A stretch of 64,000 nucleotides of DNA from Patescibacteria group bacterium (GCA_022563395.1 JADFNM010000001.1:19891-83890); one strand, 5' to 3'. Counted from the stretch's first letter, positions 17,260-53,879 are shown. The notes: a model not told the origin generated them from the letters alone. Numbers and translations: made by a program.

Positions 17260-17273
17260 GGTAATATATATGC

Positions 17274-19540: not shown

Positions 19541-20302
19541 ATGAACCAAAGGAGATTTTTCAAGGAAGCAAGATGGTTGCTTCAAGAAAAGTATCAAAGC
19601 AAACTTACAAAAGCTGCAAAAAAAGATATTGCACGACTCAAAGCAGGGGAGCCGGTGGATTACCTTATTGGATTTGTAGAGTTTGCGGATTGCCGCATTG
19701 ATCTTTCCTTAAAACCTCTCATTCCTCGCCCGGAAACAGAGCATTGGACCCAAAAAGCCATACAAGATATCCGCATGTCTCCTAAACGAAATTTAAGCAC
19801 TCACTGTTTAGATGTATTTTCCGGATCAGGATGTATTGGCATTGCAGTTTTAAAGCACATTCCCCATGTTTGTGTTGACTTTGCAGAAAACGAGAAAAAG
19901 TTTTTACAGCAAATTCATCTTAATCTTAAAAAGAACAGAATTTCAAAGAAGCGCTTTCGAGTATTTCAGTCAAATATCTTTTCTGAAGTATCTTTGCGGT
20001 ATGACTACATTTTTGCCAACCCACCATATGTCGCAAAATCAAAGAAACATAGTGTACATGCATCAGTTCTTAGGCACGAACCTCGTGAAGCTTTGTTTGC
20101 GGGGAAAGATGGGCTTTTGTACATCAGAAGGTTTTTGAAAGAAGCAAAAACACATCTCAAACCAAAGGGATCAATATACCTGGAGTTTGACTCTCCTCAG
20201 AAAAAAGAGATAGACAAACTTCTCCAGCGGTTTGACTATAGTTCTTGGCAATTCCATAAAGACCAATACGGGAAATGGCGTTTTGTCGTTGTGGAAAACT
20301 AA
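19541..20302 (+). CDS. prmC: release-factor glutamine N5-methyltransferase
   Basis: FANPPY (NPPY motif), VFSGSGCIGIA (SAM motif) and EPREAL. Confidence 0.85.
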   Translation: MNQRRFFKEARWLLQEKYQSKLTKAAKKDIARLKAGEPVDYLIGFVEFADCRIDLSLKPLIPRPETEHWTQKAIQDIRMSPKRNLSTHCLDVFSGSGCIGIAVLKHIPHVCVDFAENEKKFLQQIHLNLKKNRISKKRFRVFQSNIFSEVSLRYDYIFANPPYVAKSKKHSVHASVLRHEPREALFAGKDGLLYIRRFLKEAKTHLKPKGSIYLEFDSPQKKEIDKLLQRFDYSSWQFHKDQYGKWRFVVVEN

Positions 20303-20345
20303 ATCTCGTTTAGTTATCCACACCTAAACGAGATTTAAGCAGACG
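20299..20345 (-). repeat. DnaA-box-loop palindromic element (inverted orientation)
   Basis: CTAAATCTCGTTTAG TTATCCACAC CTAAACGAGATTTAAGCAGAC has a 14-bp perfect stem. TTATCCACA lies at 20314-20322. Confidence 0.9.
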
Positions 20346-20972
20346 AAGTTGTTCTAAAGAAATACTATCTTTGATTGTGAAATCTCCGACACGGGTGCGT
20401 TCAAGCTCGGTGAGATAGGCGCCGGTGCCCAATGTTTCTCCAATGTCTTTTGCTAAAGAGCGGATATATGTGCCGGCGGAACATACAACTCGAATCTTGA
20501 GCGAGGGCGGAGAATATTTGAGCACCCCAATCTCGTGAATCTGCACTTTCCGACTGGGGAGCACCACATTCACGCCTCTTCTTGCAAGCTTGTACGCGGG
20601 AACCCCTTTTACCTTTATCGCAGAATAGGGCGGGGGAGTCTGCTTTATCTCTCCCACAAATGACCTTAGCGTATCCTTAATCTCGCTTAAGTGTGGATAA
20701 CTTAGTGAGACCAAGGATATTTGGCCTTCGGGGTCGCCTGTAGTGCTGGTTTTGCCAAGTTCTAGGGTAGCAACATATTCTTTTTTGGTGTTTTTGGTGA
20801 TTTCAGTGAGTTTTTTGGTATCCTCTCTTCCCACGGCAACAACAAGAACACCTGTTGCAAAGGGGTCTAAGGTACCTGCATGCCCTACCCGCCTTTCTCC
20901 TGTTTGTCTTCTGACTTCATCCACCACGTCGTGGGAGGTTATGCCTTTTGGCTTGTTGATGTTGAGTACCAT
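20310..20972 (-). CDS. truB: tRNA pseudouridine-55 synthase
   Basis: GHAGTLDPFATGVLVVAVG (the catalytic Asp motif). Confidence 0.92.
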   Translation of the reverse strand: MVLNINKPKGITSHDVVDEVRRQTGERRVGHAGTLDPFATGVLVVAVGREDTKKLTEITKNTKKEYVATLELGKTSTTGDPEGQISLVSLSYPHLSEIKDTLRSFVGEIKQTPPPYSAIKVKGVPAYKLARRGVNVVLPSRKVQIHEIGVLKYSPPSLKIRVVCSAGTYIRSLAKDIGETLGTGAYLTELERTRVGDFTIKDSISLEQLRLLKSRLGVDN

Positions 20973-21007
20973 TAAGGGTAAACTTAACTAAACTAAGTTT
21001 AGCAGAA

Positions 21008-22651
21008 ATGAATCTAAAAGAAGAACTCAAAACAGTACTCAAGGGTGAAGTGGAGGACTCGCCAGATATTCTCCAAGAGTACAGCAGAGATGCTTCTCTC
21101 TTTGAGCTAAAGCCCCGGTTAGTTGTATTTCCCAGAGATACAGAGGATGTAAAATCTTTGGTGAGGTTTACCAAAGAACATCCGGAGGAAAACTTGTCTT
21201 TAACCGCAAGAGCCGGGGGAACGGACATGACAGGAGGGCCTTTGACCCAAAGCATTGTGGTGGATATGGCGCGCCACTTTAACAACATTCTTGAGATTAA
21301 AAATAATAGAGCAAGGGTGCAGCCGGGGGTTTGGTACCGGGACTTTGAAAAGAAAGCTGCAAAGCAAAACCTTTTGCTTCCTTGCTATCCTGCTTCAAAG
21401 GACATTTGCACCTTAGGGGGCATGGTAGCGAATAATGCAGGAGGAGAAAAGACCTTGCGTTATGGCAAGACCGAAGATTACGTTATAGAGCTTAAGATAG
21501 TTCTTTTAGACGGAGAAGAACATACCGTAAAACCCCTCTCATTTCAGGAACTTAAAGAGAAGATGGCAGTTGAAGGATTTGAGGGAGGGTTTTACCAAAA
21601 GATATTTAAGCTGGTTCAAGAACACAAATCCCTTCTTGCATCGGTAAAACCCAAGGTTTCCAAAAACTCTGCCGGATACTACCTTTGGAATGTATGGGAC
21701 GGAGCAACTTTTGACTTAACAAAACTCTTTGTTGGCTCTCAAGGCACGTTGGGGATTATTACTGAGATAACCTTTACATTGGTAACGCCAAAAAAGCATT
21801 CTACCCTGCTTGTACTCTTTTTGTATAATTTTGCACCGCTGGCAAAGCTTACACAAAAGCTTCTGAAACATAAGCCAGAGAGCCTGGAATCGTATGATGA
21901 CCATACATTGCAATTTGCAATCATGCACATTCCGGATTTTATTAAGCTCTTGAAGGGGAACATCATCACCTTAGCTTTTCAGTTTATCCCCGAGTTTATC
22001 ATGTTTTTGAAAGGAGGACTAAAACTTCCAAAACTGGTGGTGTTAGCTGAGTTTACCGGAGACTCAGAAGAAGAAGTCTACAAAAAAGCCGCAGCTGCAA
22101 AAAAGGATCTTGCTGGTTTCAAAGCGCTGATGAGAATTACACGTTCTGACAAAGAGGAATTAAAGTATATGACAGTGAGAAGGCAGAGCTTCAATCTGTT
22201 GCGACACCACGTGAAAGGCAAGCGCACCGCTCCCTTTATTGACGATATCATTGTTCCGCCAGAAACATTGCCTGAGTTTTTGCCAAAGCTTCAGTACATC
22301 CTGGCACAGCACCCAAAGCTCGTCTATACCATTGTGGGCCATGTAGGGGACGGCAACTTTCACATAATCCCCTTGATGGACTTAAGAAAGGAAGAGAACA
22401 GAATTCTTATTCCCTCTTTAATGGAGCAAGTGTACAAGTTGGTGTTTGAGTACGGGGGAAGCATGACTGCAGAACATAATGACGGCATTATTCGCACCCC
22501 CTTTTTAGAAGATATGTTTGGCAAAGAAGTGGTAGAGTTGTTTTCTAAAACCAAACAAGTGTTTGATTCTCAGGGTATCTTTAACCCGGGCAAAAAAACA
22601 AAAGGTGATGTGGATTTTGCCCTTTCGCACATAAGTCTCAAAAACAAGTAA
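21008..22651 (+). CDS. FAD-binding oxidoreductase (GlcD / D-lactate dehydrogenase-like)
   Basis: PCMH-type FAD-binding N-terminus (VVFPRDTEDVKSLVRF...ARAGGTDMTGG) and a C-terminal FAD-oxidase domain. Confidence 0.8.
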   Translation: MNLKEELKTVLKGEVEDSPDILQEYSRDASLFELKPRLVVFPRDTEDVKSLVRFTKEHPEENLSLTARAGGTDMTGGPLTQSIVVDMARHFNNILEIKNNRARVQPGVWYRDFEKKAAKQNLLLPCYPASKDICTLGGMVANNAGGEKTLRYGKTEDYVIELKIVLLDGEEHTVKPLSFQELKEKMAVEGFEGGFYQKIFKLVQEHKSLLASVKPKVSKNSAGYYLWNVWDGATFDLTKLFVGSQGTLGIITEITFTLVTPKKHSTLLVLFLYNFAPLAKLTQKLLKHKPESLESYDDHTLQFAIMHIPDFIKLLKGNIITLAFQFIPEFIMFLKGGLKLPKLVVLAEFTGDSEEEVYKKAAAAKKDLAGFKALMRITRSDKEELKYMTVRRQSFNLLRHHVKGKRTAPFIDDIIVPPETLPEFLPKLQYILAQHPKLVYTIVGHVGDGNFHIIPLMDLRKEENRILIPSLMEQVYKLVFEYGGSMTAEHNDGIIRTPFLEDMFGKEVVELFSKTKQVFDSQGIFNPGKKTKGDVDFALSHISLKNK

Positions 22652-22678
22652 TCCACAGGAAGCTATGGGTTGTATGAC

Positions 22679-22708
22679 TTGACGTACTTTTGTTGCCCAA
22701 GGTAGAAT
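22679..22708 (+). promoter_or_regulatory. promoter (TTGACG-18-TAGAAT) upstream of the riboswitch candidate
   Basis: Boxes at 22679-22684 and 22703-22708. Confidence 0.55.
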
Positions 22709-22734
22709 GCTTGCAGAACACAAGTGAAATGACA

Positions 22735-22963
22735 GGAATTCAGAGGAAGTGGGTGTAATTCCCATGCCACAGCCCTGTACCATATGGTACTGGGCGTGGC
22801 CGTGCATCAAATGATGCATGGCTCCCCCGGAACGGTTAGAGCCCGGTCGACTGAATTCCCCTCTATAAGTTTTGGTCACGTCCACTCGAGGGAGGGGGAA
22901 AGCGTCCATGAAAGGAAAAGCTTCTTTCAGGTGACCTTAAAACTCCCTCAGGAGTATTTTTTT
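22735..22963 (+). promoter_or_regulatory. candidate cobalamin riboswitch with terminator-type expression platform
   Basis: Closing helix GGAATTCAG (22735-22743) pairs with CTGAATTCC (22851-22859). AGGAAGTGGGTGTAATTCCCATGCCACAGCCC resembles the GGGAA..GGTG..AA..CC..GC core. AGAGCCCGGTCGACTG (22838-22854) resembles the B12 box AGCCCGAAGACCTG of btuB. ACTCC CTCA GGAGT A TTTTTTT lies at 22942-22963. The downstream genes are DUF4430-type. Confidence 0.6.
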
Positions 22964-22973
22964 GGCTTGAAAT

Positions 22974-23396
22974 ATGAACAAAGGAACGCTTTTCTTGCTT
23001 TTTTCCGTAGTTCTTTTAGGAGGTGGAGTTGCTGGCAGTGCTTTTCTGCAGGGTGGGACAGAGAGTATTGTCCCAGCCCCTAGGACACCAGAGCAACTCA
23101 TCCCTGTCATCCTTGAGGTTGAAGGGACTATGTATAAAGTGAGCGTAAAACCTGGCAGCAATGCGTATGATGCCATGGTGCAAGCTCATGAAACCTCTGA
23201 CCTGAGTTTTGAGGGCACTGAGTTTTCTGGACTAGGGTTTTTTATAGAAGAGATCAACGGATTACGGCAGAATCCCAGGGTTGGGAAGTACTGGATATAT
23301 TACATAAACGGCAAGATGGCAAAGGTTGGAATATCAATATACAAAGTACAGACAAATGATGTTATCTCGTGGAAGTATGAAAAAGAACATGAATAA
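22974..23396 (+). CDS. secreted DUF4430-domain protein (transcobalamin beta-domain-like)
   Basis: Signal peptide, then ...NAYDAM...GFFIEEINGL...KYWIYYINGKMAKVGISIYKVQTNDVISWKY, the DUF4430 pattern. Confidence 0.75.
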   Translation: MNKGTLFLLFSVVLLGGGVAGSAFLQGGTESIVPAPRTPEQLIPVILEVEGTMYKVSVKPGSNAYDAMVQAHETSDLSFEGTEFSGLGFFIEEINGLRQNPRVGKYWIYYINGKMAKVGISIYKVQTNDVISWKYEKEHE

Positions 23397-25473
23397 ACTT
23401 ACCATTCTCGTTGTTTTCTTTGGGTTGGCTTTTGCCGCTTCTGTTCAGGCCAGCAATGTTTCTGTGTCTTTGAGGTATCAGGATACGCTTGTGCTTGACG
23501 CCGTATCTTTTGAGCTTCCTTTGCCGGGAACCGTCACCATTATGGATACCGAGGGAGAAGAAAGATTGGTCAATGTGCAAAGCGTGCTTGGCGTGCTGAT
23601 TGCACTTGATGAAGCTGACGCATCCTTTGAGATGTCAAAGATACAATACTTTGTCGCTTTTGAATCTTTGTATCTCCAATGTATTACCGTAACTTTATTG
23701 GGAAGCGAACCGTGCGACAACTGGTTGTATGCGGTTAATGGAACGTCTCCTGGCTTAGGAATGGACGCTTTTATTCTTACTGGTGGAGAGCAGATTTATG
23801 TATACTTTGGCCCTTCCCATCAAGTTGTTTTGAGCGCAACTACCATAAGCCAGGGAGCATCCTTTCAGGCTACGGCGCAGAATTATCAATATCAAGATAA
23901 TACCTGGGTTCCGCTTACCGGGATAACTATTGGTTTTACGCAACCCGACCTTAAAAACCCATTTTCTCCTATTGAGGTATTGCTTTTAGCCGTAGATGAG
24001 CAGGGGCAAATATCATTAAACCTGGATATTCCGCCAGGGGATTATAACGTGGGCATTAAAGAAGATTTTTACTTTCCAAGCGTTCAGCTTACGGTAGTTG
24101 CGCCCACCCCTACAAGGCAAAGCGGGGGAGGACTGCCCCAGCACGTGCATCGGAATTTGGATGTCAAGAAGGCAATGCAATTTCTTGCCCTTAACCAAAA
24201 TGAAGATGGATCGTTTGGCCAAGGAACATTATTCACCGACTGGGCAGCAATTGCTTTTGGCGCATATGGCGAGGAAAGTCCTATAAAAGAAAAGGTAAAG
24301 GATTATTTGCTTGACGATCCCGATCCAGGCGGTTTTCTCACCGATTACGAAAGAAGAGCTATGGCGCTGATGTCTCTCTCAATAGACCCGTATTCTGGCA
24401 CCAAAACCGATTACATTCAAAAGATTAGTGATGGTTTTGACGGCACGCAGTTTGGAAATCCTAACCTGGTGAACGACGATATCTTTGCTCTTCTTGTTTT
24501 GCTTAATGCTGGATACGAGGCGTCTGAAGGTATTATTGCAAAGACACTGGAGTTTATCCTTTCCTATCAACTGGAGAACGGCTCTTTTGTGGGTGTGGAT
24601 ATGACAGCAGCTGCGGTGCAGGCATTGGCTCTGGTGTCTTCAGAGAAAGGCGTAAGCGATTCTCTTTTGAACGCGAAAGAATATCTTAAGAGCCAGCAGG
24701 AGAATTCTGGCGGGTTCAAAAACGTGTATTCTACAAGCTGGGTAATGCAGGCAATGGCAGCTCTTGGAGAGCCGGAAACATCTTTCGCGGGCAACCAAAA
24801 CACACCCGGAGACTATTTGTACATGCAGCAGGCAGAAGACGGGGGAGTGGAAGAGTCAGATACCAATACGGACAACCGTATTTGGGCAACGTCATATGCT
24901 ATCCCAGCTGGCCTTTCAAAGCCATGGGGCGACATACTCCAGGATTTTGAGAAACCTGCCATGCAGCCAGTTGAGCCAGTTGCTCAATCCTTAAAAGAGG
25001 AGTTGATCCAAGGAGAGATTGCTGCTTTGGAAGTGTCTATAGATGTACTTTCTCAGCACATTGCATCCCTTGCTGAAACTACAAGGAAACTGGGGGTGAT
25101 TGAACTTAAGGTTTTACGCATTGCACAAGAAGTAGAGGCATTAAGACCTCAGGTTGCGGCGCTATATGTTGCTTACCTTGCAAAGCTAGAGCGGCCGCAG
25201 TCCAAAGCATTGGCCCAGCAGTCGAGTACTGAGGTCGCAAAGTCCAACGTGTTAGAAGACGGAACCATTACCTTTGAATCTGAGGCCACGACCCTTAAGC
25301 AAGAAGACGGTGAACAATTCACGGCAGAAGCTGCCTTGACAGCACAAAACTTTTTCCGTTCTTCTGCCGGACAGGCGGTCTTGGCCCTTTTGGTAGGTGT
25401 TATTCTCTTTCTTGTTCTTGGAGGATGGAGAGTCATTCTTTCTTTGGTTCGGCGCCCAAGAACTGTGGTTTGA
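23377..25473 (+). CDS. surface-anchored DUF4430 + prenyltransferase/terpene-cyclase-like alpha-toroid protein
   Basis: Signal peptide (MKKNMNKLTILVVFFGLAFAASVQA). N-terminal DUF4430 (NWLYAVNGTSPGLG...GGEQIYVYFG). Repeats such as QNEDGSFG, QLENGSFVG, QQENSGGF and QQAEDGGV. Coiled coil and a C-terminal TM anchor. Confidence 0.7.
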   Translation: MKKNMNKLTILVVFFGLAFAASVQASNVSVSLRYQDTLVLDAVSFELPLPGTVTIMDTEGEERLVNVQSVLGVLIALDEADASFEMSKIQYFVAFESLYLQCITVTLLGSEPCDNWLYAVNGTSPGLGMDAFILTGGEQIYVYFGPSHQVVLSATTISQGASFQATAQNYQYQDNTWVPLTGITIGFTQPDLKNPFSPIEVLLLAVDEQGQISLNLDIPPGDYNVGIKEDFYFPSVQLTVVAPTPTRQSGGGLPQHVHRNLDVKKAMQFLALNQNEDGSFGQGTLFTDWAAIAFGAYGEESPIKEKVKDYLLDDPDPGGFLTDYERRAMALMSLSIDPYSGTKTDYIQKISDGFDGTQFGNPNLVNDDIFALLVLLNAGYEASEGIIAKTLEFILSYQLENGSFVGVDMTAAAVQALALVSSEKGVSDSLLNAKEYLKSQQENSGGFKNVYSTSWVMQAMAALGEPETSFAGNQNTPGDYLYMQQAEDGGVEESDTNTDNRIWATSYAIPAGLSKPWGDILQDFEKPAMQPVEPVAQSLKEELIQGEIAALEVSIDVLSQHIASLAETTRKLGVIELKVLRIAQEVEALRPQVAALYVAYLAKLERPQSKALAQQSSTEVAKSNVLEDGTITFESEATTLKQEDGEQFTAEAALTAQNFFRSSAGQAVLALLVGVILFLVLGGWRVILSLVRRPRTVV

Positions 25474-25543
25474 CCCCCACACCATAACAAGGTGTGACCC
25501 CGTCCTATTTGCGCAAAGCGCGCACCTTGTTTAGTGTGGGGGT

Positions 25544-25572
25544 TTGAACTCAGGCAGCAGAGAAGATATACT
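25544..25572 (+). promoter_or_regulatory. promoter (TTGAAC-17-TATACT) 6 nt upstream of the ATG at 25579
   Basis: The spacing implies a leaderless or near-leaderless transcript. Confidence 0.6.
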
Positions 25573-25578
25573 AAGGAC

Positions 25579-26019
25579 ATGAAACAAGATGTCTTGCTCC
25601 GTGTTGTACGGACATTAAACCTAAACCCAAAACCTGAATACAGAGGGTTTCGCTGCGCAAACTGCCAGCGCTACTTGCACAAGGCATGGCATCACTGGCT
25701 AACTTCTGGTGGATATAGGATTTCAGTGCATCTTTGCCAATCTTGCGAGGGTTTGTTTAAGCAAGACAAGTTGAAAGCTCGTGGCTTGAGCCGCCCTGTT
25801 TTAAAATCAAGATTCTATACGAATTTTTCTTCTAAGATTCGGAGCCAACTCCGCAATTTTCTTGGTAGAACATCAGCAAAACCGGTCTATAAAAGTTTTG
25901 CCTGCGACAAATGCAGAACCAGTTTGCTGAAAGCCTACCATGTGTGGTCGTTTTTGCGCGGTTCTTTACGTGAACTCCATTTGTGCAAGCGATGTGGAGA
26001 CACGGTCTTTTTGGTATAA
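25579..26019 (+). CDS. hypothetical protein with two tandem CxxC...CxxC zinc-ribbon repeats
   Basis: Internal repeat: YRGFRCANCQRYLHKAWHHW...LCQSCEGLF and YKSFACDKCRTSLLKAYHVW...LCKRCGDTVF. Confidence 0.55.
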   Translation: MKQDVLLRVVRTLNLNPKPEYRGFRCANCQRYLHKAWHHWLTSGGYRISVHLCQSCEGLFKQDKLKARGLSRPVLKSRFYTNFSSKIRSQLRNFLGRTSAKPVYKSFACDKCRTSLLKAYHVWSFLRGSLRELHLCKRCGDTVFLV

Positions 26020-26027
26020 TCTATACT

Positions 26028-26486
26028 ATGAAAATCTATCTTGCAGCAGATCATGCTGGCTTCGATTTAAAAGAAGTCATCAAGAAATATTTAAAAGAAC
26101 AGAGAAGAGAGGTTGAGGATATGGGGGCTTTTACTTTAAATAAACAGGATGACTACCCCGACTTTATCCTGCCTGCTGCCATAAAGGTGGCAGAGAATCC
26201 TCAAGAGAACTTTGGTTTGTTTTTTGGCGCTTCAGGACAGGGAGAGGCCATAGCGGCAAACAAGGTAAAGGGTATTCGGGCAGCAGTGTACTATGGGGGG
26301 TCTTTGGAATTGGTGAAGCGTTCTCGCTCTCACAACAATGCCAACGTTCTTTCTTTGGGCGCAAGGTTTCTAACCGTAGAAGAAGCAATTGACGCCGTTG
26401 AGATGTGGCTCAGAACAGAGTTTGTAGGCGGGAGACACGAACGTCGTATTGAGAAAGTGAAGAAGTTTGAACAACGCAGACAATAA
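26028..26486 (+). CDS. rpiB: ribose-5-phosphate isomerase B
   Basis: MKIYLAADHAGFDLKE...GASGQGEAIAANK...NANVLSLGARF. TGGTATAAT ends 7 nt before the ATG. Confidence 0.9.
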   Translation: MKIYLAADHAGFDLKEVIKKYLKEQRREVEDMGAFTLNKQDDYPDFILPAAIKVAENPQENFGLFFGASGQGEAIAANKVKGIRAAVYYGGSLELVKRSRSHNNANVLSLGARFLTVEEAIDAVEMWLRTEFVGGRHERRIEKVKKFEQRRQ

Positions 26487-26533
26487 CTTAATGAAATTAA
26501 GGAATCCTTAGTCTAGCTAAGGAGAAAGAAACT

Positions 26534-27166: not shown

Positions 27167-27175
27167 AGTAACTAT

Positions 27176-28057
27176 ATGAAAGAATACTCTATTAAGGATC
27201 TTAAAAAGAAGGCAAACCAGATACGCCAAGACATCATTAAACTCTTGGTTCAGGCCGGATCTGGGCATTCAGCAGGTCCTTTAGGTATGGCAGACATTTT
27301 TACTGCCCTGTATTTTCGCGTTTTAAAGCACAACCCAAAGAACCCAAGATGGAAAGACCGGGACCGCCTCATTCTTTCTAACGGGCATATTTGTCCGGTG
27401 AGATACACTGCCATGGCTCATGCAGGGTATTTCCCGAAGAGTTGGCTTAAAACCTTTCGTAAAATCAACTCAAAGCTGGAAGGACATCCGTCTTTCAAGA
27501 AACTTCCTGCAGTGGAGACTTCTTCTGGCCCCCTGGGTGAAGGGTTGTCGCAGGCCTGCGGGTTTGCCCTGGCTGCCAAGATGGACAACGCAAGCTACCA
27601 CGTGTGGTGTTTGATGTCAGATGGCGAACACCAAGAAGGCATGACCTGGGAGGCAGCAATGCTGGCCTCCAAGTATCGTTTAAACAACCTCACGGTGGTG
27701 GTGGACAGAAACAACATTCAGATTGACGGCGTGACAGAAGATATCATGCCTTTGGAACCCTTCAGGGCAAAGTATGAAGCGTTTGGCTGGCATGTGATAG
27801 ACATGAACGCGCATGATATGAGAGAAATCATTTCTACTTTAGAGGAGGCAAAGGCAATCCAAGAAAAACCCGTGTGCATTATTGCTCATACCATTCCCGG
27901 TAAGGGAGTTTCTTTCATGGAAAAAGACTATAAATGGCACGGGGTCCCGCCGGGAACTGCGATTGCAGGAGAGCCAGAAAAGGAAAAGCAAGTAAAGATT
28001 GCCCTGAGAGAACTTCGTACCCTAAGGGAAAAGATTGAAGCTGCCGACATTGACTAG
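27176..28057 (+). CDS. tkt: transketolase, N-terminal subunit
   Basis: GSGHSAGPLGMADI, SNGH and GPLGEGLS motifs. This is the split form. Confidence 0.9.
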   Translation: MKEYSIKDLKKKANQIRQDIIKLLVQAGSGHSAGPLGMADIFTALYFRVLKHNPKNPRWKDRDRLILSNGHICPVRYTAMAHAGYFPKSWLKTFRKINSKLEGHPSFKKLPAVETSSGPLGEGLSQACGFALAAKMDNASYHVWCLMSDGEHQEGMTWEAAMLASKYRLNNLTVVVDRNNIQIDGVTEDIMPLEPFRAKYEAFGWHVIDMNAHDMREIISTLEEAKAIQEKPVCIIAHTIPGKGVSFMEKDYKWHGVPPGTAIAGEPEKEKQVKIALRELRTLREKIEAADID

Positions 28058-28105
28058 CTGCTTAAATCTCGTTTAGGTGTGGATAACTAAACGAGATTTA
28101 GGCAA
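28058..28105 (+). repeat. DnaA-box-loop palindromic element
   Basis: CTGCTTAAATCTCGTTTAG GTGTGGATAA CTAAACGAGATTTAGGCAA. TGTGGATAA lies at 28078-28086. It starts 1 nt after the tkt-N stop. Confidence 0.9.
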
Positions 28106-28110
28106 ACAAA

Positions 28111-31932: not shown

Positions 31933-31985
31933 ACTGGGGAAAACCCTCTTTGCAACTTTTCTTGTAAATCGTACAATTATATAAT

Positions 31986-33061: not shown

Positions 33062-33076
33062 CGAAATTAAGTTTTT

Positions 33077-35184: not shown

Positions 35185-35185
35185 G

Positions 35186-35842: not shown

Positions 35843-36177
35843 TGGAGAAGTTAACTGAGAAAAAATGCGTGCCGTGTGAAGGAGGAACTCCTCCTTTGAA
35901 CGAGGAAGAAATCCAAGCATACGCAGGTCAGCTTCAGGGTGAATGGGAGGCTATAGATGAGAAAAAAATACAAAAGCAGTTTTCTTTCAAGAACTTTAAA
36001 GAGGCCTTGGCGTTTGTAAACAAGGTAGGCGAGATTGCAGAATCTGAAGGGCACCACCCTGATATTCGCCTGTTTGGATACAAGAATGTGGAAATTGAGC
36101 TTTCTACGCATGCCATTGGCGGTCTCTCCGAGAATGACTTTATTGTAGCCGCAAAAATAGAGCAGCTTTCTGCTTAA
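35842..36177 (+). CDS. phhB: pterin-4-alpha-carbinolamine dehydratase
   Basis: F.F.NF..A..F.N.V...AE..GHHPD motif. Confidence 0.85.
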   Translation: MEKLTEKKCVPCEGGTPPLNEEEIQAYAGQLQGEWEAIDEKKIQKQFSFKNFKEALAFVNKVGEIAESEGHHPDIRLFGYKNVEIELSTHAIGGLSENDFIVAAKIEQLSA

Positions 36178-36218
36178 ATCTCGTTTAGGTGTGGATAACT
36201 AAACGAGATTTAAGCAGA
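36169..36218 (+). repeat. DnaA-box-loop palindromic element (20-bp perfect stem)
   Basis: TCTGCTTAAATCTCGTTTAG GTGTGGATAA CTAAACGAGATTTAAGCAGA. The PCD stop codon TAA (36175-36177) lies inside the left arm. Confidence 0.92.
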
Positions 36219-36234
36219 CGGGGGGATACTGCAA

Positions 36235-36654: not shown

Positions 36655-36667
36655 AGGAATCAAATTT

Positions 36668-36736
36668 CAGTTTCCCCCGTGTAGGAAATTATTCAAAACC
36701 GAGGGTTTTGAAAAGAAGGGGGGTCGGGGGAAACTG
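36668..36736 (+). other. nested hairpin element between the DUF296 gene and the nagZ-like gene
   Basis: A 12-bp outer stem (CAGTTTCCCCCG with CGGGGGAAACTG) encloses CAAAACC GAG GGTTTTG. No T-tract follows. Confidence 0.45.
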
Positions 36737-36757
36737 TGTGAGCGTAAATTTCATGAG

Positions 36758-37813: not shown

Positions 37814-37837
37814 GGACAATAGTATGCTAGAAACACC

Positions 37838-38230: not shown

Positions 38231-38232
38231 AT

Positions 38233-39009: not shown

Positions 39010-39011
39010 TT

Positions 39012-39130
39012 CCTTAACGAAATTAAGGATTCCTTAGTTTAGTTAAGAGACAACCAAGAGAACCATTCGTGCTTAAATGAGATTTAAGCAGGAATGCAGA
39101 ATAAAGAGTCGCCAAACAGGCGATTCTTTG
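39012..39130 (+). repeat. three-hairpin intergenic cassette, copy 2 (diverged)
   Basis: CCTTAACGAAATTAAGG ... GCTTAAATGAGATTTAAGC ... GAGTCGCCAAACAGGCGATTCTTTG. Confidence 0.8.
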
Positions 39131-39148
39131 TTAAACTATGCAGGAGAT

Positions 39149-40710: not shown

Positions 40711-40802
40711 TGAAATTAAGGAGATAATTGATAGAATCAGCCATTCTTAAATAAGATTTAAGCAGCATGGAGAGAAAGAATCGCCACAAAGGCGATTTTT
40801 TG
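40705..40802 (+). repeat. three-hairpin intergenic cassette, copy 3 (complete)
   Basis: CCTTAATGAAATTAAGGAGATAATTGATAGAATCAGCCATTCTTAAATAAGATTTAAGCAGCATGGAGAGAAAGAATCGCCACAAAGGCGATTTTTTGG. The pyrH stop TAA lies inside hairpin 1. Confidence 0.9.
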
Positions 40803-40835
40803 GTAAAATAGATTCATAAGTAGTATTCATGTAGT

Positions 40836-42389
40836 ATGCCAAATTTCTTGAAACGTCCCTTCGGAGTCATCTCTATCTTCGTTCTTATTGGTGTTATTGG
40901 AATGTTCTTTGTTTTGAGGGATCCTGGAGAACTGCGTATTGAAACAGCAGAAGTTGTAAGGCGCGATATTGTGCAGGAAGTGGCAGTGACCGGGAGAGTT
41001 AAGGCAGCTACATCCGTAGAGCTTGCCTTTGAGAAGGCGGGCAGGGTATCTCAGGTTCACGTAAGAGTCGGAGACAGGGTTGTTCCCGGGACTTTGCTTG
41101 TGAGTTTGGATAGCTCAGAATTGCTTGCCAACTTAACTGAAGCAAAAGCCGATGTGAAAGTACAAGAGTCAAAACTAAAGGAGCTTAAGCGCGGCACAAG
41201 AGTAGAGGAACTGGAGATTCAGCGGGTGAAGGTGCAAAATGCGGAGTTTGCACTACAAGATACCAGGCAGCAGATTCTTGATACATTGCAAGACAGCTAC
41301 ACCAGGTCAGATGATGCGGTGCGAAACAAGATAGACCAGGTGTTCTTAAATCCACGAGGTTCATCTCCACAGATTCTATTCATTGCAACGAATTTTCAAT
41401 TGGAGTACACGATTAAAACGAAACGCATCGTCGTGGAGGCAACACTCACTTTCTGGAAGGCTTCATTGGAATCCCTTTCCTTAAAGAGCGACCTGAAGGG
41501 AGCCCTTGAAACAACAAAGCAGAACCTAGGGGAGATTCAATCCTTTCTGGACGACTTGGCTCTTGCAATCAATGGGGCGACTCCCGCGGGTTCCATAACC
41601 CAGAGCACCCTAAACTCCTGGCAATCTGACGTTTCCACGGCAAGAACGAATGTGAATACGGCAGCTTCCAACACCAGCTCGGTAGAAGAAAGTCTGCAAG
41701 TAGCGCAATCGAGCTTGGCTTTGCAGCAACAGAACCTTGTCTTAAAAGAGGCTGGGGCTGCTCCAGAAGAGATTGCAGCCCAACAAGCAAAGCTGGAACA
41801 GTCAGGAGCTGCAGTCACAAAGATTGAGACGCAAATAGACAAAAACAAGCTATTCTCTCCCATTTTTGGCGTTGTTACCAAGCAGACGGCTAAGGTGGGA
41901 GAATTGGTGGTTTCAGCTGTCATCATCGTTTCTCTTATCTCAGAGAATGACTTTGAAATTAAAACCAATGTTCCAGAAGCCGACATTGCAAAGATACAGA
42001 CTGGAAACACAGCTGAGGTAACCTTAGATGCCTATGGCAGGGATGTGATGTTTGGAGCTAAGGTTGTGAGTATTGACCCCGCAGAAACCATTATTGAAGG
42101 AGTGGCAACGTATAAGGTAACCTTGCTATTTGAAAAAGAGGATGAGCGCATCAAGTCTGGCATGACTGCAAACATTAATATTGTAGGAGCAAGCAAGCAA
42201 GGAGTACTTGCAATTCCCCAAAGAGCAGTTATTCGAAAAGATGGTGAGAAGTTCGTTCGGGTATTCAGAGGAAAGGAGATAGAGGAAATGAATGTAAAAA
42301 CAGGACTGCGGGGTTCGGACGGCTTCATTGAGATTACAGAGGGCCTTAAAGAGGGAGACGTTGTCATCACCTTTCTTGAAGGTGAGTAA
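40836..42389 (+). CDS. HlyD/MacA-type periplasmic adaptor subunit
   Basis: N-terminal anchor, lipoyl-like segments flanking a long coiled coil, and a C-terminal beta-barrel pattern. An ABC pair follows. Confidence 0.8.
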   Translation: MPNFLKRPFGVISIFVLIGVIGMFFVLRDPGELRIETAEVVRRDIVQEVAVTGRVKAATSVELAFEKAGRVSQVHVRVGDRVVPGTLLVSLDSSELLANLTEAKADVKVQESKLKELKRGTRVEELEIQRVKVQNAEFALQDTRQQILDTLQDSYTRSDDAVRNKIDQVFLNPRGSSPQILFIATNFQLEYTIKTKRIVVEATLTFWKASLESLSLKSDLKGALETTKQNLGEIQSFLDDLALAINGATPAGSITQSTLNSWQSDVSTARTNVNTAASNTSSVEESLQVAQSSLALQQQNLVLKEAGAAPEEIAAQQAKLEQSGAAVTKIETQIDKNKLFSPIFGVVTKQTAKVGELVVSAVIIVSLISENDFEIKTNVPEADIAKIQTGNTAEVTLDAYGRDVMFGAKVVSIDPAETIIEGVATYKVTLLFEKEDERIKSGMTANINIVGASKQGVLAIPQRAVIRKDGEKFVRVFRGKEIEEMNVKTGLRGSDGFIEITEGLKEGDVVITFLEGE

Positions 42390-42393
42390 CTTC

Positions 42394-43062
42394 ATGGCCT
42401 TCCTTTTAGTAGAGAATGTAGAGAAAAGCTATAGTGACGGAACCCAGGCACTCCGGGGAGTGTCTTTTACAATTGAGAAAGGAGAGTTTGTTGCCATCAT
42501 GGGACCTTCCGGCTCTGGTAAGTCTACCTTGCTGCATGTTCTTGGATTTTTAGATAGGCAAACAAAAGGAGAGTATCGCTTTGATGGGAAAACGATTGAT
42601 GACTATACATCAGAGGAGTTGGCCCATGTTCGCAACAAAAGGATGGGATTTGTGTTTCAGGCATTTAACCTCTTGGCGAGAACCACAGTACAGGAGAATG
42701 TAAAGCTGCCCTTGTTGTATTCTGATGTGAAGAAATCAGAGCAAGAAGAATTGGCAAGAAAAGCGGTTGCAGCGGTGGGTTTGACAGAGCATAGCAATCA
42801 TCTTTCCTCCCAACTCTCTGGGGGCGAGAAACAAAGGGTTGCCATAGCTCGTGCGTTAGTGAACAACCCCGATGTTATCTTTGCAGATGAGCCTACTGGG
42901 AATCTTGATTCAACTTCCGGCAAGATAGTCATGAAAATCATCCAGAAGTTAAACGAGGAAGGACACACGGTTATTCTCATTACACATGAAGCCTATACCG
43001 CAGAGCACGCCCAGCGCATCATTTACATGCTAGACGGCAAGATTGAGGGCGACAGCAAATAG
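42394..43062 (+). CDS. ABC transporter ATP-binding protein (MacB/LolD-like)
   Basis: Walker [10 protein letters not shown], signature LSGGEKQR and Walker B IFADEPTG. Confidence 0.92.
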
Positions 43063-43063
43063 T

Positions 43064-44308
43064 ATGACGTTACAAGATAGCTTTAAGACCGCATTCAAGG
43101 GGTTGGAAACCAATCGTTCCCGCTCCCTTCTCACTATTTTAGGTATTGTTATTGGCATTACCGCCATTATTTTAATGATGTCCATTGGCCAAGGTGCAGA
43201 ATCCTTGATTCTTCAGCAGCTCGGAGGATTGGGAGCCGAAACCATTGTTATTCGCCCCGGCAAGCAGCCCACTGGTCCGAGTGACATTGGCGAAACCCTA
43301 CTGACCAATTCTTTGAAAACAAGGGATGTGGAATCCTTAAAGAGAAGAGAAAACGTGCCCGGTCTGGTTGAAATAACACCCATTCTTTTGGTGCCAGGGT
43401 CAGTATCATTTGAGGGGGAAACGTTTCGACCCACCATCATTGGAAGTTCGGGTAGCTTTTTCCCCGACGTGTTTAATGTCTATCCTAAAGAGGGCGTTTT
43501 GTTTGATGAGTCAGACATTACCCAGAATGCAAGCGTTGCAGTAATTGGCTCCAGGGTTGCTGAAGAGCTTTTTTTGAGCTCTGATGCCCTTGGAGAGTAT
43601 ATCACTATTAAAGACCGAAAGTTCCGCGTTATTGGAGTGTTTCCTCCAAAAGGCCAAGTTGCCTTCTTTAACATTAACGAGTTGGTTATTGTACCTTACA
43701 CCACAGCCCAGCTGTACCTCTTGGGCGTTGATTACTTCCATGAAATCATCGTGAAGGCAGAAAGTCAGGAAGCGGTTTTGCGAACAGTACGAGACATTGA
43801 ACTTACCTTGCGTGAAAACCATGGCATTGCAGATCCTAAGGACGATGACTTTTTTGTGACCACACAAGAAGGTATTGTAGAGCAGGTTCAGATTATCATT
43901 GGAGCCTTAACCGCGTTTCTGTCTTCGGTAGTTGCTATTGCTTTGGTAGTGGGAGGCATTGGAGTCATGAATATCATGTTAGTGTCGGTAACAGAACGAA
44001 CACAAGAGATCGGACTCAGAAAGGCCGTGGGAGCAACAGAAGGGGATATTCTCTTTCAGTTCTTATTTGAAGCAATCATTCTCACTGGGGTGGGAGGTGT
44101 CATTGGCATTGCATTAGGCACAGGTCTCTCCTTTTTGGCTTCCCTTGTTTTAACAGCTACTCTAGGCGTTACTTGGATCTTTGTTTTTCCCATAACCGCA
44201 GCTCTCTTGGGGTTCTTTGTGTCAGGGTTGGTTGGACTCATCTTTGGCTTGTATCCTGCAAGACAGGCCGCAAAGAAATCTCCGATTGAAGCTTTGCGCT
44301 ATGAATAA
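43064..44308 (+). CDS. ABC transporter permease, MacB/FtsX family
   Basis: TM1, a large periplasmic domain, and a C-terminal FtsX-like 3-TM bundle (...LRKAVGAT..DI..QFL.E). Confidence 0.88.
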   Translation: MTLQDSFKTAFKGLETNRSRSLLTILGIVIGITAIILMMSIGQGAESLILQQLGGLGAETIVIRPGKQPTGPSDIGETLLTNSLKTRDVESLKRRENVPGLVEITPILLVPGSVSFEGETFRPTIIGSSGSFFPDVFNVYPKEGVLFDESDITQNASVAVIGSRVAEELFLSSDALGEYITIKDRKFRVIGVFPPKGQVAFFNINELVIVPYTTAQLYLLGVDYFHEIIVKAESQEAVLRTVRDIELTLRENHGIADPKDDDFFVTTQEGIVEQVQIIIGALTAFLSSVVAIALVVGGIGVMNIMLVSVTERTQEIGLRKAVGATEGDILFQFLFEAIILTGVGGVIGIALGTGLSFLASLVLTATLGVTWIFVFPITAALLGFFVSGLVGLIFGLYPARQAAKKSPIEALRYE

Positions 44309-44317
44309 CCAATAGTG

Positions 44318-44413
44318 CCCTAATGCATTAAGGAGATAATCACTAGAATCATTCATGCTTAAATGAGATTTAAGCAGCATGGAGAAGAAGAATCGCCAAA
44401 CAGGTGGCTTTTT
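44318..44413 (+). repeat. three-hairpin intergenic cassette, copy 4
   Basis: CCCTAATGCATTAAGGAGATAATCACTAGAATCATTCATGCTTAAATGAGATTTAAGCAGCATGGAGAAGAAGAATCGCCAAACAGGTGGCTTTTTG. Confidence 0.9.
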
Positions 44414-44427
44414 GATAGAGTTGGAGT

Positions 44428-45354
44428 ATGGCATTATCACTCGGAATTGTGGGGCTGCCTAATGTGGGGAAATCTACCCTGTTTCAGGCGCTAACAAAAA
44501 AGGAGGTGGAGATTGCAAACTATCCCTTTACCACCATTGATCCTAACGTAGGGGTTGTTCAGGTTCCAGATGAAAGGCTGGAGAAGCTTGCCCACCTTTT
44601 TCATTCAGAAAAGGTGATACCTTCCATTATAGAGTTTGTAGATATTGCAGGGTTGGTAAAGGGTGCGAACAAAGGAGAGGGGCTGGGGAATCAGTTTTTG
44701 GCACGTATCAGAGAGGTTGATGCCATCTGCCAGGTGGTGCGCTGTTTCCCCAGCGCAGACATTATCAACGTTGAGAAGACCGTGGACCCGTTGCGCGATA
44801 TTGATACTATTAACACAGAGCTTGAGTTAAAAGACATTGAAACAGACAAAAAAGGGAGTTCTATCCCAGAGTCTGAGCTGTTAAGCAAAAAACCCGTTCT
44901 GTACCTGCTTAACTGCAATCCCGGTGATGCTTCAGAAGAGCTTTTAAAGCAAGTCAAAAAATCTGGCGCTGCTTATGTTACTGCAAATCTGAAAGACGAA
45001 CTTGAAATGCAGGAGCTTGCCGAAGTGGAAAGAAAAGAGCTTGGTTTTGTATCCCAACTCCCAGAGCTCATCAAGAAATCTTACGAACTCCTAGACCTTA
45101 TTACGTTCTTTACCGTGGTAGGAGAAAAAGAGGCGAGGGCATGGGCTGTCAAAAAGGGAACAAAAGCCCCCCAAGCGGGGGGAGTGGTTCATGGCGACTT
45201 TCAAGAGAAGTTTATTAAAGCCATGGTAATACCCTGGGATAAGTTGCTGGAAGTTGGAACTTATGCTGCGGCCGCAGCTAAGGGCTGGCTGAGGACAGAA
45301 GGCAAAGACTATGTGGTGCAAGATGGTGACGTGATTGAAATCAAACACGGTTAG
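44428..45354 (+). CDS. ychF: redox-regulated ATPase YchF (short form)
   Basis: GIVGLPNVGKSTLF, NYPFTTIDPN and the C-terminal TGS-like ...YVVQDGDVIEIKH. Confidence 0.88.
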   Translation: MALSLGIVGLPNVGKSTLFQALTKKEVEIANYPFTTIDPNVGVVQVPDERLEKLAHLFHSEKVIPSIIEFVDIAGLVKGANKGEGLGNQFLARIREVDAICQVVRCFPSADIINVEKTVDPLRDIDTINTELELKDIETDKKGSSIPESELLSKKPVLYLLNCNPGDASEELLKQVKKSGAAYVTANLKDELEMQELAEVERKELGFVSQLPELIKKSYELLDLITFFTVVGEKEARAWAVKKGTKAPQAGGVVHGDFQEKFIKAMVIPWDKLLEVGTYAAAAAKGWLRTEGKDYVVQDGDVIEIKHG

Positions 45355-46505
45355 TACACTTTTCTATCTACAAAAAGGCCGTTTTCGTCCAGAAGTTGGA
45401 TTGTGTCGTGGGTGGGATGTCCAAAGCTTCGGTTCGCGAAAACCTGCCACTCATTTTTCAGAAAGTTGGAGTCGCCAGAATGTTTGGTAACGCAAGCCCC
45501 ATAGTTTAGGTTATCGTTGATATAGGTGATGCAGGGAGCATTGGCGGCAACAGCTGCGTTCTGAGAATACGAAGGGACTTCGCACCGGGAAAAGTTCACC
45601 TCTTTTAATATGAAATCCTGGCAGGCAGGAGTGAGGAATGACACATCCTGAAGGCTTGGCCTGTCTGGGCAAGAGGATGGGACGGAGAGGGGAAAAGAAT
45701 AGTATTGGGCGAGCCAGCCAAAGCATATGTTCGGCCTGAAGTTGCCGCCGGCTCCGAACGGGGAAGCGGCCCCGGAAACGAGCACCTTATCACCCCTATT
45801 GAGCACTATTCGTTTTTGAAAGGCCGTGCCTACAGGAGAGATCCGTTCTGCGCCAAAGCCAATAGAAAAGCTCCCCGTGTTGCTCTTTAGGGTCCAGTTG
45901 GAGATGGAAAGGGTTTCCCCGGATTTAAGGTGCGAGGAAAGAGTGAACATAAAGGGAGAGGAAGAAGTTGCCCGCCGGAAGCTTCCAATGGTTATCTTCC
46001 CAAAGGAAGGGGAGACGTTGACGCGAAAGGCTCTTGTGGCGGGAGTCGTGTCCACCTCATTCTTGAGCTTTGCTCGGACTAAAAAAGTGTATTCGGCCGG
46101 TCCCCCGGGAAGTGTAATCTTTCGTTGCCTGCTTGAGGTTGCTTTCCAGTCAGGGTCAACACCCTCAATCTTGGTTTCAAAGGTGATACGTCCTGCTGTA
46201 TCTGTTGGATTTACAGATCCCTCAAACTCAAAGGTCACCACATTGGTATCGCTGATTTTTGTATCCTCTGTTGGGCCTTTTGTAATAACGGTGTTAAGCA
46301 CAAACGGGAGAGAGGTTTTTAAAGGGGCTTGTCTAATGGTGCTTGGTCGCGGAGTAGCAGCTTTTGGCGTTACTTTTTCAACGCTTTTTTGCGAGAATAG
46401 CTGGAGGCTGGGTAAAGGAATATCTATGTTTTTAAGAATATCGCCACCAGCAGAAAAGGCAAAGATTCCAATTAAGATAAGAATGGGAATAAGAAAGATT
46501 GGCAT
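45351..46505 (-). CDS. hypothetical exported protein (Ig/lamin-tail-like middle, Cys-rich C-terminus)
   Basis: 384-aa ORF with an N-terminal TM/signal (MPIFLIPILILIGIFAF). Preferred over the antisense 232-aa ORF. A TAGAAT -10 lies upstream on the minus strand. Confidence 0.55.
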   Translation of the reverse strand: MPIFLIPILILIGIFAFSAGGDILKNIDIPLPSLQLFSQKSVEKVTPKAATPRPSTIRQAPLKTSLPFVLNTVITKGPTEDTKISDTNVVTFEFEGSVNPTDTAGRITFETKIEGVDPDWKATSSRQRKITLPGGPAEYTFLVRAKLKNEVDTTPATRAFRVNVSPSFGKITIGSFRRATSSSPFMFTLSSHLKSGETLSISNWTLKSNTGSFSIGFGAERISPVGTAFQKRIVLNRGDKVLVSGAASPFGAGGNFRPNICFGWLAQYYSFPLSVPSSCPDRPSLQDVSFLTPACQDFILKEVNFSRCEVPSYSQNAAVAANAPCITYINDNLNYGACVTKHSGDSNFLKNEWQVFANRSFGHPTHDTIQLLDENGLFVDRKVY

Positions 46506-46538
46506 AGATTCCTTTATTCTATGATATAATCCATGGAT

Positions 46539-47288
46539 ATGAAAGTAACAGCTCTAAAGACAAAAAAGATTACCCCAAAGGATACCGATATCTTGGAGAT
46601 TCTTGACAGGTATCTTCTGCGCTTAAAAGACAGGAGTGTGGTTGCTGTCACCTCAAAGATTGTAGCTATTTGTGAAGGAAGGGTGGTGCCAGAAAAATCA
46701 GGAGGCAAGGACAAACTTATCATCAGGGAAGCAGAGTATTACCTTCCCCGTACTTCTAGCAGGTATAACATTATGCTCACGGTGAAGGGAAACGCTATCA
46801 ATTTCTCTTCTGGCATAGATGAGTCCAATACCGGGGGGTACTTTGTCTTGTGGCCCAAAGATCCCCAAAAGTCTGCAAATACAATTCGGGAATACCTTAT
46901 TAAAAAACACAAGAAAAAGAACATTGGTGTTGTTATTTGTGACACCGCTTCCGTGCCCTTGCGTTGGGGGCAGCGAGGAGTGTTTGTCTTGGCGCACAGT
47001 GGGTTTGCCGCTTTAAACTCCTACATTGGAAAACTGGATATCTTTGGCAGACCCTTGAAGATGACGTCTGCTGCAGTAGCCGATGCTTTGGGAGCCGCTG
47101 CCGTGTTGGTGATGGGAGAGGGAGCAGAGCAGACTCCTTTGGTTGTTATTGAAGATGTTCCTTTTGTAAAGTTTAAACAGAGAAACCCGACCAAAAAAGA
47201 GCTTGAGAAGTTACAAATGCCGTTGGAAGATGACCTTTATGCCCCGTTATTGAAAGCAGTAAAATGGCGCAAAGGGGGTTCTGCCTAA
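46539..47288 (+). CDS. CofE-like gamma-glutamyl ligase family protein
   Basis: ...VVAVTSKIVAICEGRVV... and ...GIDESN...ICDT... fit the F420-0:gamma-glutamyl ligase fold family. TGATATAAT (46522-46530) lies 8 nt before this ATG. An alternative ATG is at 46533. Confidence 0.65.
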   Translation: MKVTALKTKKITPKDTDILEILDRYLLRLKDRSVVAVTSKIVAICEGRVVPEKSGGKDKLIIREAEYYLPRTSSRYNIMLTVKGNAINFSSGIDESNTGGYFVLWPKDPQKSANTIREYLIKKHKKKNIGVVICDTASVPLRWGQRGVFVLAHSGFAALNSYIGKLDIFGRPLKMTSAAVADALGAAAVLVMGEGAEQTPLVVIEDVPFVKFKQRNPTKKELEKLQMPLEDDLYAPLLKAVKWRKGGSA

Positions 47289-47327
47289 ATCTCGTTTAGG
47301 TGTGGATAACTAAACGAGATTTAGGCA
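47282..47327 (+). repeat. DnaA-box-loop palindromic element (18-bp perfect stem)
   Basis: TGCCTAAATCTCGTTTAG GTGTGGATAA CTAAACGAGATTTAGGCA. The upstream gene's stop TAA (47286-47288) lies in the arm. Confidence 0.92.

Positions 47328-52218: not shown

Positions 52219-53879
<1,661 letters not shown>

Follow-up and report, generated by a model that had tools for sequence, protein, structure and literature searches.

The Correia (NEMIS) elements of Neisseria are 100–150 bp long, show a TA target duplication, can contain an IHF site that is functional, and fold into hairpins in mRNA. DnaA boxes away from oriC are known from datA and DARS of Escherichia coli and from the DnaA-box clusters of Bacillus subtilis, which control initiation and are fixed loci with at least 3–5 boxes in a defined arrangement. 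The A site of the DnaA-dependent ABC primosome, attributed to Masai and Arai in 1995, is said to be a single-stranded DNA hairpin with a dnaA box in its bindable stem. Among the repetitive extragenic palindromes (REPs), the bacterial interspersed mosaic element BIME-1 (RIB/RIP) of E. coli consists of a REP and an inverted REP around a conserved L linker that frequently carries an IHF site (PMC3333891). A GTAG (or CGTC) at the foot of the hairpin defines those REPs that are associated with the REP-associated tyrosine transposases, RAYTs (PMC3333891, PMC3733652). REP doublets forming hairpins (REPINs) are described, in two reports, as mobilized by a Y1 transposase, the RAYT (TnpA_REP), as occurring with both doublets and singlets and as persisting for long in a clade (PMC3116915; bioRxiv 10.1101/2021.07.10.451892). 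Here we analyse a 64,000-nucleotide stretch (the window) from a Patescibacteria group bacterium (GCA_022563395.1, JADFNM010000001.1:19891-83890), and in it a dispersed palindromic element whose loop matches the consensus DnaA box. No DnaA-box-bearing repeat turned up in our searches of the literature on REPs and on Patescibacteria. The element appears to be a repeat of a known, protein-site-carrying kind, whose DnaA-box version would be new within the searchable literature.

In our reading, to which we give an even chance of being right, the element is a mosaic repeat of REPIN/BIME type confined to one clade of Patescibacteria, and selection maintains its linker as a consensus DnaA box. Two inverted REP-like units of 15–20 nt flank a fixed linker of 10–11 nt, G-TTATCCACA-C, which matches the consensus of a high-affinity DnaA box. 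The host initiator DnaA may bind this linker in duplex DNA, and the repeat family would then spread single strong DnaA sites along the chromosome, as titration sites, local roadblocks or operators. The arms would provide the usual REP properties, such as a stable hairpin in transcripts or single-stranded DNA.

Four near-identical palindromes of 44–50 nt lie at gene junctions of the window, at the places where the earlier note had seen full copies of one element. In a hairpin census their stems are 15–21 bp long with at most one mismatch and close the 10-nt loop GTGTGGATAA, the reverse complement of TTATCCACA, so the claim that the loop is the exact complement of the consensus DnaA box is borne out. 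A repeat finder returned a 44-nt stretch that is 100% identical in three of the four full copies. The copy at 20299–20342 (minus strand; order on the plus strand CTAAATCTCGTTTAG-TTATCCACAC-CTAAACGAGATTTAAGCAG) lies between the convergent genes for a methyltransferase (19541–20302) and truB, both of which terminate within it; truB extends ∼ 33 nt into the copy and gains its last ∼ ten codons there (stop 20310–20312). The remaining three are on the plus strand. The first (28058–28104; left arm 28058–28076, loop 28077–28086, right arm 28087–28104) fills the tktN–tktC junction, with the tktN stop codon (28055–28057) immediately 5′. The second (36169–36218) occupies the PCD–PCC junction and the third (47281–47327) lies 3′ of a CofE-like gene. 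In both of these the element supplies the stop codon of the upstream gene, located within the left arm (TAA at 36175–36177 and 47286–47288, respectively), and PCD acquires the ending SA-stop. The element has stop codons in all three frames. The earlier proposal that each copy begins at or within 3 nt of a stop codon therefore holds only roughly: tktN ends just before its copy, whereas the PCD and CofE-like stops are inside the arm and that of truB is ∼ 33 nt in.

Folded as DNA, the 48-nt consensus element has a predicted free energy of −19.3 kcal/mol (z = −12.3), and as RNA of −27.5 kcal/mol (z = −9.8); the box occupies the loop in every predicted fold of either kind. No copy is followed by a T-tract and a terminator scan called none of them terminator-like, although canonical terminators exist elsewhere in the window, in agreement with the earlier view that this is not a canonical intrinsic terminator. 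That candidate was rejected: the stem is AT-rich, the T-run is absent and copies lie within operons.

The description of the element as a dispersed, REP/MITE-like palindrome (MITE, miniature inverted-repeat transposable element) with a DnaA box in its loop is supported. That it maps to no described class was too strong a statement, given BIME-1, a REP/iREP pair with an IHF site in its linker. BIME-1 is the closest described class; like it, the element has inverted REP units around a conserved protein-site linker (here a predicted DnaA site) and is dispersed between genes at gene ends. It is not a member in the strict sense, because it has no IHF site and no GTAG tag and no RAYT was found in the DNA analysed. 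Its linker is a 10-nt DnaA box rather than an IHF site, its units are AT-rich, 15–20 nt long and without GTAG, its host belongs to the Patescibacteria, and its copies intrude into the 3′ ends of coding sequences, one of them lying inside a gene. The units start with CT[TA]R and their extensions are CTGC/GCAG; neither GTAG nor CGTC occurs. With REPINs the element shares an inverted doublet that forms a long hairpin, near-identical copies in one genome and the presence of REP singlets. It differs from them in lacking GTAG/CGTC, in that no RAYT was found among the window open reading frames (ORFs) scanned or in the fetched loci described below, and in a spacer that does not vary between genera and coincides with the site of a host protein. 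Correia elements are likewise small inverted-repeat elements at gene borders, whereas the present element is 48 nt long and has no visible duplication. With datA and DARS it has in common boxes away from oriC that, by consensus match alone, are of the high-affinity kind; its boxes are single and repeat-borne. It resembles the A site as a single-stranded DNA hairpin containing a dnaA box, and differs in having the box in the loop and not in the stem.

The box is strongly enriched in the window. TTATCCACA occurs six times versus 0.33 expected and 0 of 100 shuffles reached six, which confirms the earlier count of at least six perfect boxes, well above chance. A 5′ G precedes all nine TTWTCCACA sites, so that the motif is a 10-mer, longer than the 9-mer first noted: GTTWTCCACA is found nine times (0.28 expected) and HTTWTCCACA not once (1.38 expected). 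Boxes R1, R2 and R4 of E. coli likewise carry a 5′ G. The nine boxes comprise six of TTATCCACA and three of TTTTCCACA, the only variants seen, and all match the consensus TTWTNCACA. Two perfect 9-mers had been noted in coding sequence in addition to the four loops; both exist, at 9704–9712 (plus strand) and 20692–20700 (minus strand), rather than at 9714 and 20693. The second had been taken for a stray coding match and is actually the loop of a fifth, diverged copy within truB, discussed below. An extra box, GTTTTCCACA, at 20290–20299 (minus strand) abuts the left arm of the 20299 copy and is inverted with respect to its loop box. Three boxes are solitary. One (GTTTTCCACA, 8634–8643, plus strand) directly follows mscL and shares sequence with the 5′ arm of a hairpin of terminator-like form, which continues into TGGTATAAT. 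Another (GTTATCCACA, 9703–9712, plus strand) lies at the 3′ end of an S26-type peptidase ORF and is followed by a 6-bp hairpin and TATAAT, upstream of an MscS-like gene. The last (GTTTTCCACA, 18154–18163, minus strand) is within an uncharacterised ORF (18042–18719, minus strand). Most boxes in the window are single, and the densest spot is the region around truB with three in 412 bp (20290–20701). Separately, we note GTAATCCACAG, a one-mismatch box that spans the stop codon of an FAD-oxidase gene at 22647–22657 of the window and in two related contigs (L023:5982–5992 and L026:1754–1764); it is kept ∼ 30 nt upstream of a TTGAC −35 element in these three lineages, and at the equivalent place the contig L020 has a REP hairpin and a perfect TTATCCACA.

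Each arm of the element is a copy of a 15-nt REP-like unit, CTWAA-TCTCG-TTWAG, the two copies being inverted relative to each other; the unit is often longer, with the form CTGC...GCAG. Each arm is itself a 5-bp mini-palindrome (94% paired). Perfect CTWRN-N5-NYWAG units number 16 in the window versus 1.2 in shuffles. The REP-like family is common in the intergenic DNA of the clade and also occurs without any box. Between convergent genes at 2492–2529, for example, the same arms form a tail-to-tail pair with a 4-nt AGCT spacer and no box. Single units lie at the atpA–atpG junction (CCTAAACGAGATTTAAGCAA, 51270–51289, plus strand), where the stop codon is within the unit, and at the atpG–atpD junction (52220–52239, plus strand). 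A doublet of another subfamily, CTTAGCGAGACCAAGG-AAT-CCTTGGTCTCGCTAAG (56446–56480), has no box, nor has the tandem pair of unlike units, CTTAATGAAATTAAG and CTTAGTCTAGCTAAG, that comes straight after a stop codon at 26487–26521 (plus strand). Many box-free units contain or touch a stop codon (33057, 40706, 51270 and 60788), and the intergenic gaps of the window are mostly 0–60 nt. Stop-codon hugging, at first regarded as a trait of the element, is thus shared by the whole REP family in a very compact genome. For annotation this means that repeats supply many C-termini and stop codons in these genomes. We also observed a composite repeat of ∼ 90 nt at 16283–16373, 40715–40805 and 44327–44417 (partial at 39032–39133 and 17205–17275), in which REP units are followed by a canonical intrinsic terminator whose T-tract continues into a TGGTAnAAT extended −10 element.

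For comparison we used contigs fetched through homologous proteins (denoted L0xx). A tree of four proteins (1198 columns) groups the window with L031 (93% identity) and then L032 (82%); L023 (78%) and L026 (77%) are next, and L020, L028 and L030 fall outside. The genome is of the Parcubacteria type, and close homologues of the window proteins are labelled Paceibacterota and Wildermuthbacteria. REP-like units are found in members of the clade, including the box-free L026, and are absent from the outgroups L028 and L030. The exact arms with any loop of 0–30 nt gave only unrelated hairpins in GTDB representatives and JGI metagenomes, sets that lack the source genome, and viral contigs held no match to CTCG-N(3-6)-GGTGTGGATAAC-N(3-6)-CGAG. 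Because the element is absent from these sets, all comparative evidence comes from the homologue-fetched contigs.

An alignment of ten sequences from four lineages separates the behaviour of linker and arms. Columns 20–31 are invariant save for A/T at box position 3, so that variation in the linker is confined to a position at which DnaA tolerates it, while 12 of the 15 stem pairs have changed on both sides and 95.3% of the stem cells are paired. None of 500 shuffles reached this level of covariation, and slid controls collapse. The arms are CTTAAATCTCGTTTAG in the window, CTTACTCTCGGTAAG in L023, a hybrid in L031 and CTAGACTCGGTCTAG in L020; the loop is unchanged throughout. The suggestion that relatives would conserve the loop while their arms covary is therefore upheld, and the head-to-head TCTCG...CGAGA doublets do not carry arbitrary loops: among the matches listed from ∼ 300 kb of clade DNA, seven of seven share the 10-nt box spacer. 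The alignment shows a linker held constant by purifying selection and arms that turn over with the REP pool. That the arms were overwritten from the genomic REP pool would fit, because L031 retains the mini-palindromes while breaking two inter-arm pairs. The copies of L031 and L023 are identical at 45 of 49 positions (92%), and the adjacent tktC genes are 77% identical overall and 51% at third codon positions; identity of this degree has P ∼ 1e-9 if the rate of third positions is applied and 0.007 with the overall rate.

These data also bear on a simpler explanation, in which a founder doublet had this spacer by chance, and copying and exchange spread it through related genomes with no selection on the spacer. 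Being identical by descent, the four copies of the window represent one event, boxes are absent from several relatives, and the arms of the window tkt copy differ strongly from those of the 93%-identical L031, which indicates replacement and not slow evolution. Such hitch-hiking would nevertheless need an exact 9-mer (really 10–11-mer) match to a near-universal DnaA consensus, which is improbable a priori, and a spacer that stays invariant over four arm types and four lineages, with 12 of the 15 arm pairs changed. The sole tolerated variant is the known A/T at position 3, the independent solitary boxes have the 5′ G in common, and the site inside truB retains its box through coding sequence. 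We consider mere hitch-hiking very unlikely.

The fifth copy (20672–20721, plus strand) lies within the truB coding sequence, where it encodes ISLVSLSYPHLSEIKD. Its loop GTGTGGATAAC is intact and its arms are imperfect mini-palindromes. ISLVSLSYPHLSEIKD sits in a variable TruB segment whose length is unchanged in comparison with solved TruB structures. Among 120 homologues, TruB proteins of roughly at least 69% identity have (S/N)(Y/F)P(H/R/Q/N) at the position of the box and more distant ones have unrelated residues at equal length. SYPH corresponds to AGT TAT CCA CAC, and the Y/F (TAT/TTT) alternation is exactly that of TTATCCACA versus TTTTCCACA. The truB box is perfect, with flanking mini-palindromes, in the window, L023 and L031, where a GC hairpin replaces the 5′ palindrome. 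It has decayed in L032 (TTATCCcCA) and L034 (TTTTCCgCg), both of which have few or no boxes elsewhere. The truB-embedded box would be a nucleic-acid signal that shapes protein sequence across the clade, whoever binds it. At the 3′ end of truB L034 also has a tandem direct repeat of GCGAAACTAAATCCGATTTAGGTGCAA, a REP unit plus GTGCAA (L034:4862–4935); this lineage has no DnaA-box elements.

Orthologous junctions establish how the copies arose. The tktN–tktC junction is tight and empty in L026, L028/L029 and L030 (GAT TGA T ATG and similar), and the element is present at the identical point after the stop codon in the window, L031 and L023. L032 has a separate insertion ∼ 30 nt upstream, which deletes ten tktN codons and has its box outside the REP pair (TAG-TTATCCACAC-REP-16 nt-REP). 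The PCD and PCC genes overlap in L030. Because orthologous junctions are empty or overlapping in relatives, the comparison shows the element to be an insertion that has entered gene junctions more than once; the tktN–tktC junction was hit at least twice, since the L032 insertion is independent and at a different point. Contigs of the same species (99.9% identity) contain the element with one single-nucleotide difference in an arm that preserves pairing. Inverted repeats are present and no target-site duplication is visible when filled and empty sites are compared. No insertion sequence was found in the window or the fetched loci.

Mobility of this kind raises the possibility that the loop is the site of the element's own single-copy Y1 (HUH) transposase of RAYT/TIRYT type and not of DnaA. 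Such an enzyme would have a C-terminal helix-turn-helix like that of DnaA domain IV, bind GTTATCCACAC between two REP hairpins in DNA that is either single-stranded or duplex, and copy the doublet as a REPIN. Y1 proteins of subclass 2.1.2 do carry a Bac_DnaA_C-like C-terminal domain and have no known REP-like partner (Quentin et al., 2018, PMC6006769); the repeats seen to flank them do not resemble TTWTNCACA (PMC6006769). The REPIN architecture, the insertion polymorphism with re-insertion and the presence of a hairpin next to the motif in every mobile context are in keeping with it. Neither Y1_Tnp nor Bac_DnaA_C was detected, however, among the 50 window ORFs scanned against Pfam or the genes called in the fetched loci. 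The solitary, REP-free boxes (8634, 9703 and 18154) would be unexplained, the REP units do not have the GTAG/CGTC tag of RAYT-associated REPs, and subclass 2.1, the equivalent of RAYT group 1 of Bertels et al., yielded no REP-like partner (PMC6006769). On balance we regard a dedicated transposase as an unlikely binder of the loop.

Display of the box in a loop, to which the earlier note had drawn attention, is not essential. The box is equally conserved in L032, where it lies beside a REP pair, in the tandem REP-box-REP-box array of L020, alone near promoter-like sequence (8634 and 9703) and after a different GC hairpin in L031 truB. The sense strand is GUGUGGAUAA at the window's three operon junctions and UUAUCCACA in truB, the L032 tkt copy and L020. 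Each copy had been described as lying in the sense orientation of the gene it follows; this has little meaning, because only the loop is asymmetric, and both orientations to transcription occur when the copy inside truB and those of the relatives are included. The conservation of the box outside loops and its mixed orientation argue for recognition of the putative site in duplex DNA rather than as a loop. Arm complementarity would then be a property of the REP vehicle, which may form a hairpin in single-stranded DNA or the transcript.

The region of L020 with the tandem array deserves a separate description. It is a 334-nt intergenic stretch between HhH-GPD and PD-(D/E)XK genes (L020:17945–18160; also in L021, L022 and L025) with three boxes. 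Two are in a tandem REP-TTATCCACA-REP-TTTTCCACC array (17945–17993); a hairpin holds the third, its arms being CTAGACTCGGTCTAG and its loop TTTTCCACAC. The three lie within 200 bp (17960–18141) and possibly form a DnaA-box cluster.

A role at the level of RNA has to be set against the same observations. The conserved loop of the transcribed hairpin could be bound by an RNA-binding protein or by DnaA itself, with effects on protection of the upstream mRNA, intercistronic processing or stalling of terminating ribosomes (the stop codon is in or near the stem). REPs within ∼ 15 nt of a stop codon are said, in work attributed to Liang, Rudd and Deutscher in 2015, to reduce translation in E. coli. 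At −27.5 kcal/mol (see above) the RNA hairpin has very high stability, its stem covaries strongly, and the sense strand reads GUGUGGAUAA in the tkt copies of L023 and L031 as well as in the three window copies that lie within operons. Stabilization of mRNA by REPs is described in one report (PMC3333891), and binding of DnaA to RNA 'rDnaA boxes' has tentatively been reported (PMC10989985). Against this, the copies inside truB, the tkt copy of L032 and every copy in L020 have the opposite orientation, conservation of the motif is just as strong outside loops, and a lone REP unit has no RNA fold (0 kcal/mol). Over the whole window no Rfam family reached the gathering score, and a permissive scan of one element-bearing stretch (20200–23400) gave just a weak adenosylcobalamin (AdoCbl) riboswitch match and no family for the element. 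We judge recognition as RNA to be distinctly unlikely.

The weak AdoCbl match itself (22718–22910; 21.6 bits versus a gathering score of 50, E = 0.71) lies downstream of a conserved promoter-like TTGACG-18-TAGAAT and upstream of DUF4430 and cobalamin-binding-like genes, in a region conserved in L026.

Within the reading of the linker as a DnaA site, DnaA bound at the intra-operon copies could form an orientation-dependent transcriptional roadblock, which would couple tktC, PCC, the cytidylyltransferase gene and the 3′ part of truB to DnaA activity. DnaA at a dnaA box reportedly terminates transcription in one orientation at asnC and gua of E. coli, according to work attributed to Schaefer and Messer (1988–89) and to Tesfa-Selase and Drabble (1992). 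The copies do sit between co-transcribed genes and within truB. Junction positions are, however, equally expected of any tolerated insertion in so compact a genome, and the element is missing from the same junctions in relatives, so that we hold a roadblock function to be highly improbable.

Several lines of evidence weigh against the reading of the element as a REPIN/BIME-like repeat with a selected DnaA linker. Nine boxes occur in the 64 kb of the window, two in 12.8 kb of L031 and four in 20.9 kb of L020, and the fetched loci of L026, L028, L029, L030 and L034 have none; any host function would be dispensable, because the close relatives L026 and L034 do well without boxes. Unlike known titration loci, the boxes are single and scattered over 39 kb, and the 8.4 kb that follow the window on its right contain no box. 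The covariation of the long hairpin keeps the arms complementary, which would be unnecessary for a DnaA site recognized only as duplex. Neither a DnaA protein or dnaA gene nor an oriC was present in the window and ∼ 388 kb of fetched loci, and the proposed binding of DnaA is based on identity with the DnaA consensus. A mobile element can, moreover, conserve an internal site for its own transposition machinery and not for the host.

Two more far-reaching forms of the idea can be distinguished, which even taken together we regard as rather improbable. In the first, the repeat would be a domesticated vehicle that places strong DnaA sites throughout a minimal chromosome; bacteria possibly without the other known initiation controls would thereby have a dispersed system of initiator titration or a DnaA regulon. 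In the second, it would be the DNA partner of Y1 transposases with a domain like DnaA domain IV, a REPIN system that recognizes the DnaA box and so ties its own replication to the site of the host initiator.

Other candidate identities were dropped. An integron attC site is contradicted by flanking genes of core metabolism and by the absence of an R/L box pattern, a T-arm mimic for TruB autoregulation by loops that do not match UUCRA, and TIGR arrays by their tandem arrangement, the element being dispersed. The window's ribosomal RNA operon brought up one more. The 3′ tail of its 16S gene (7195–7215) is GGATCACATCATTT, in which the anti-Shine-Dalgarno CCUCC is changed to CAUCA, and the loop was considered as a Shine-Dalgarno sequence for this altered tail (GGUGUGG with UCACAUC). 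The start codon is 28–57 nt away, other copies have the reversed orientation and the genes show no enrichment of Shine-Dalgarno type: within 20 nt upstream of 54 genes, neither canonical Shine-Dalgarno motifs nor motifs complementary to the altered tail were enriched. The operon (5738–14148) is interrupted between tRNA-Ala (ends 7664) and 23S (starts 10913) by mscL, a small membrane ORF, genes for a Ni-superoxide dismutase and an S26-type peptidase, and the MscS-like gene.

If DnaA binds the loops, this 0.67-Mb genome has a many-fold excess of perfect DnaA boxes that are delivered by a repeat. In a minimal cell it would then put the idea of initiator titration to a natural test, and it would add a new example of a repeat that carries the site of a host protein, comparable to BIME-1 with IHF. 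Should a Y1 transposase with a DnaA-like domain prove to be the binder instead, an orphan class of enzymes would gain its DNA substrate.

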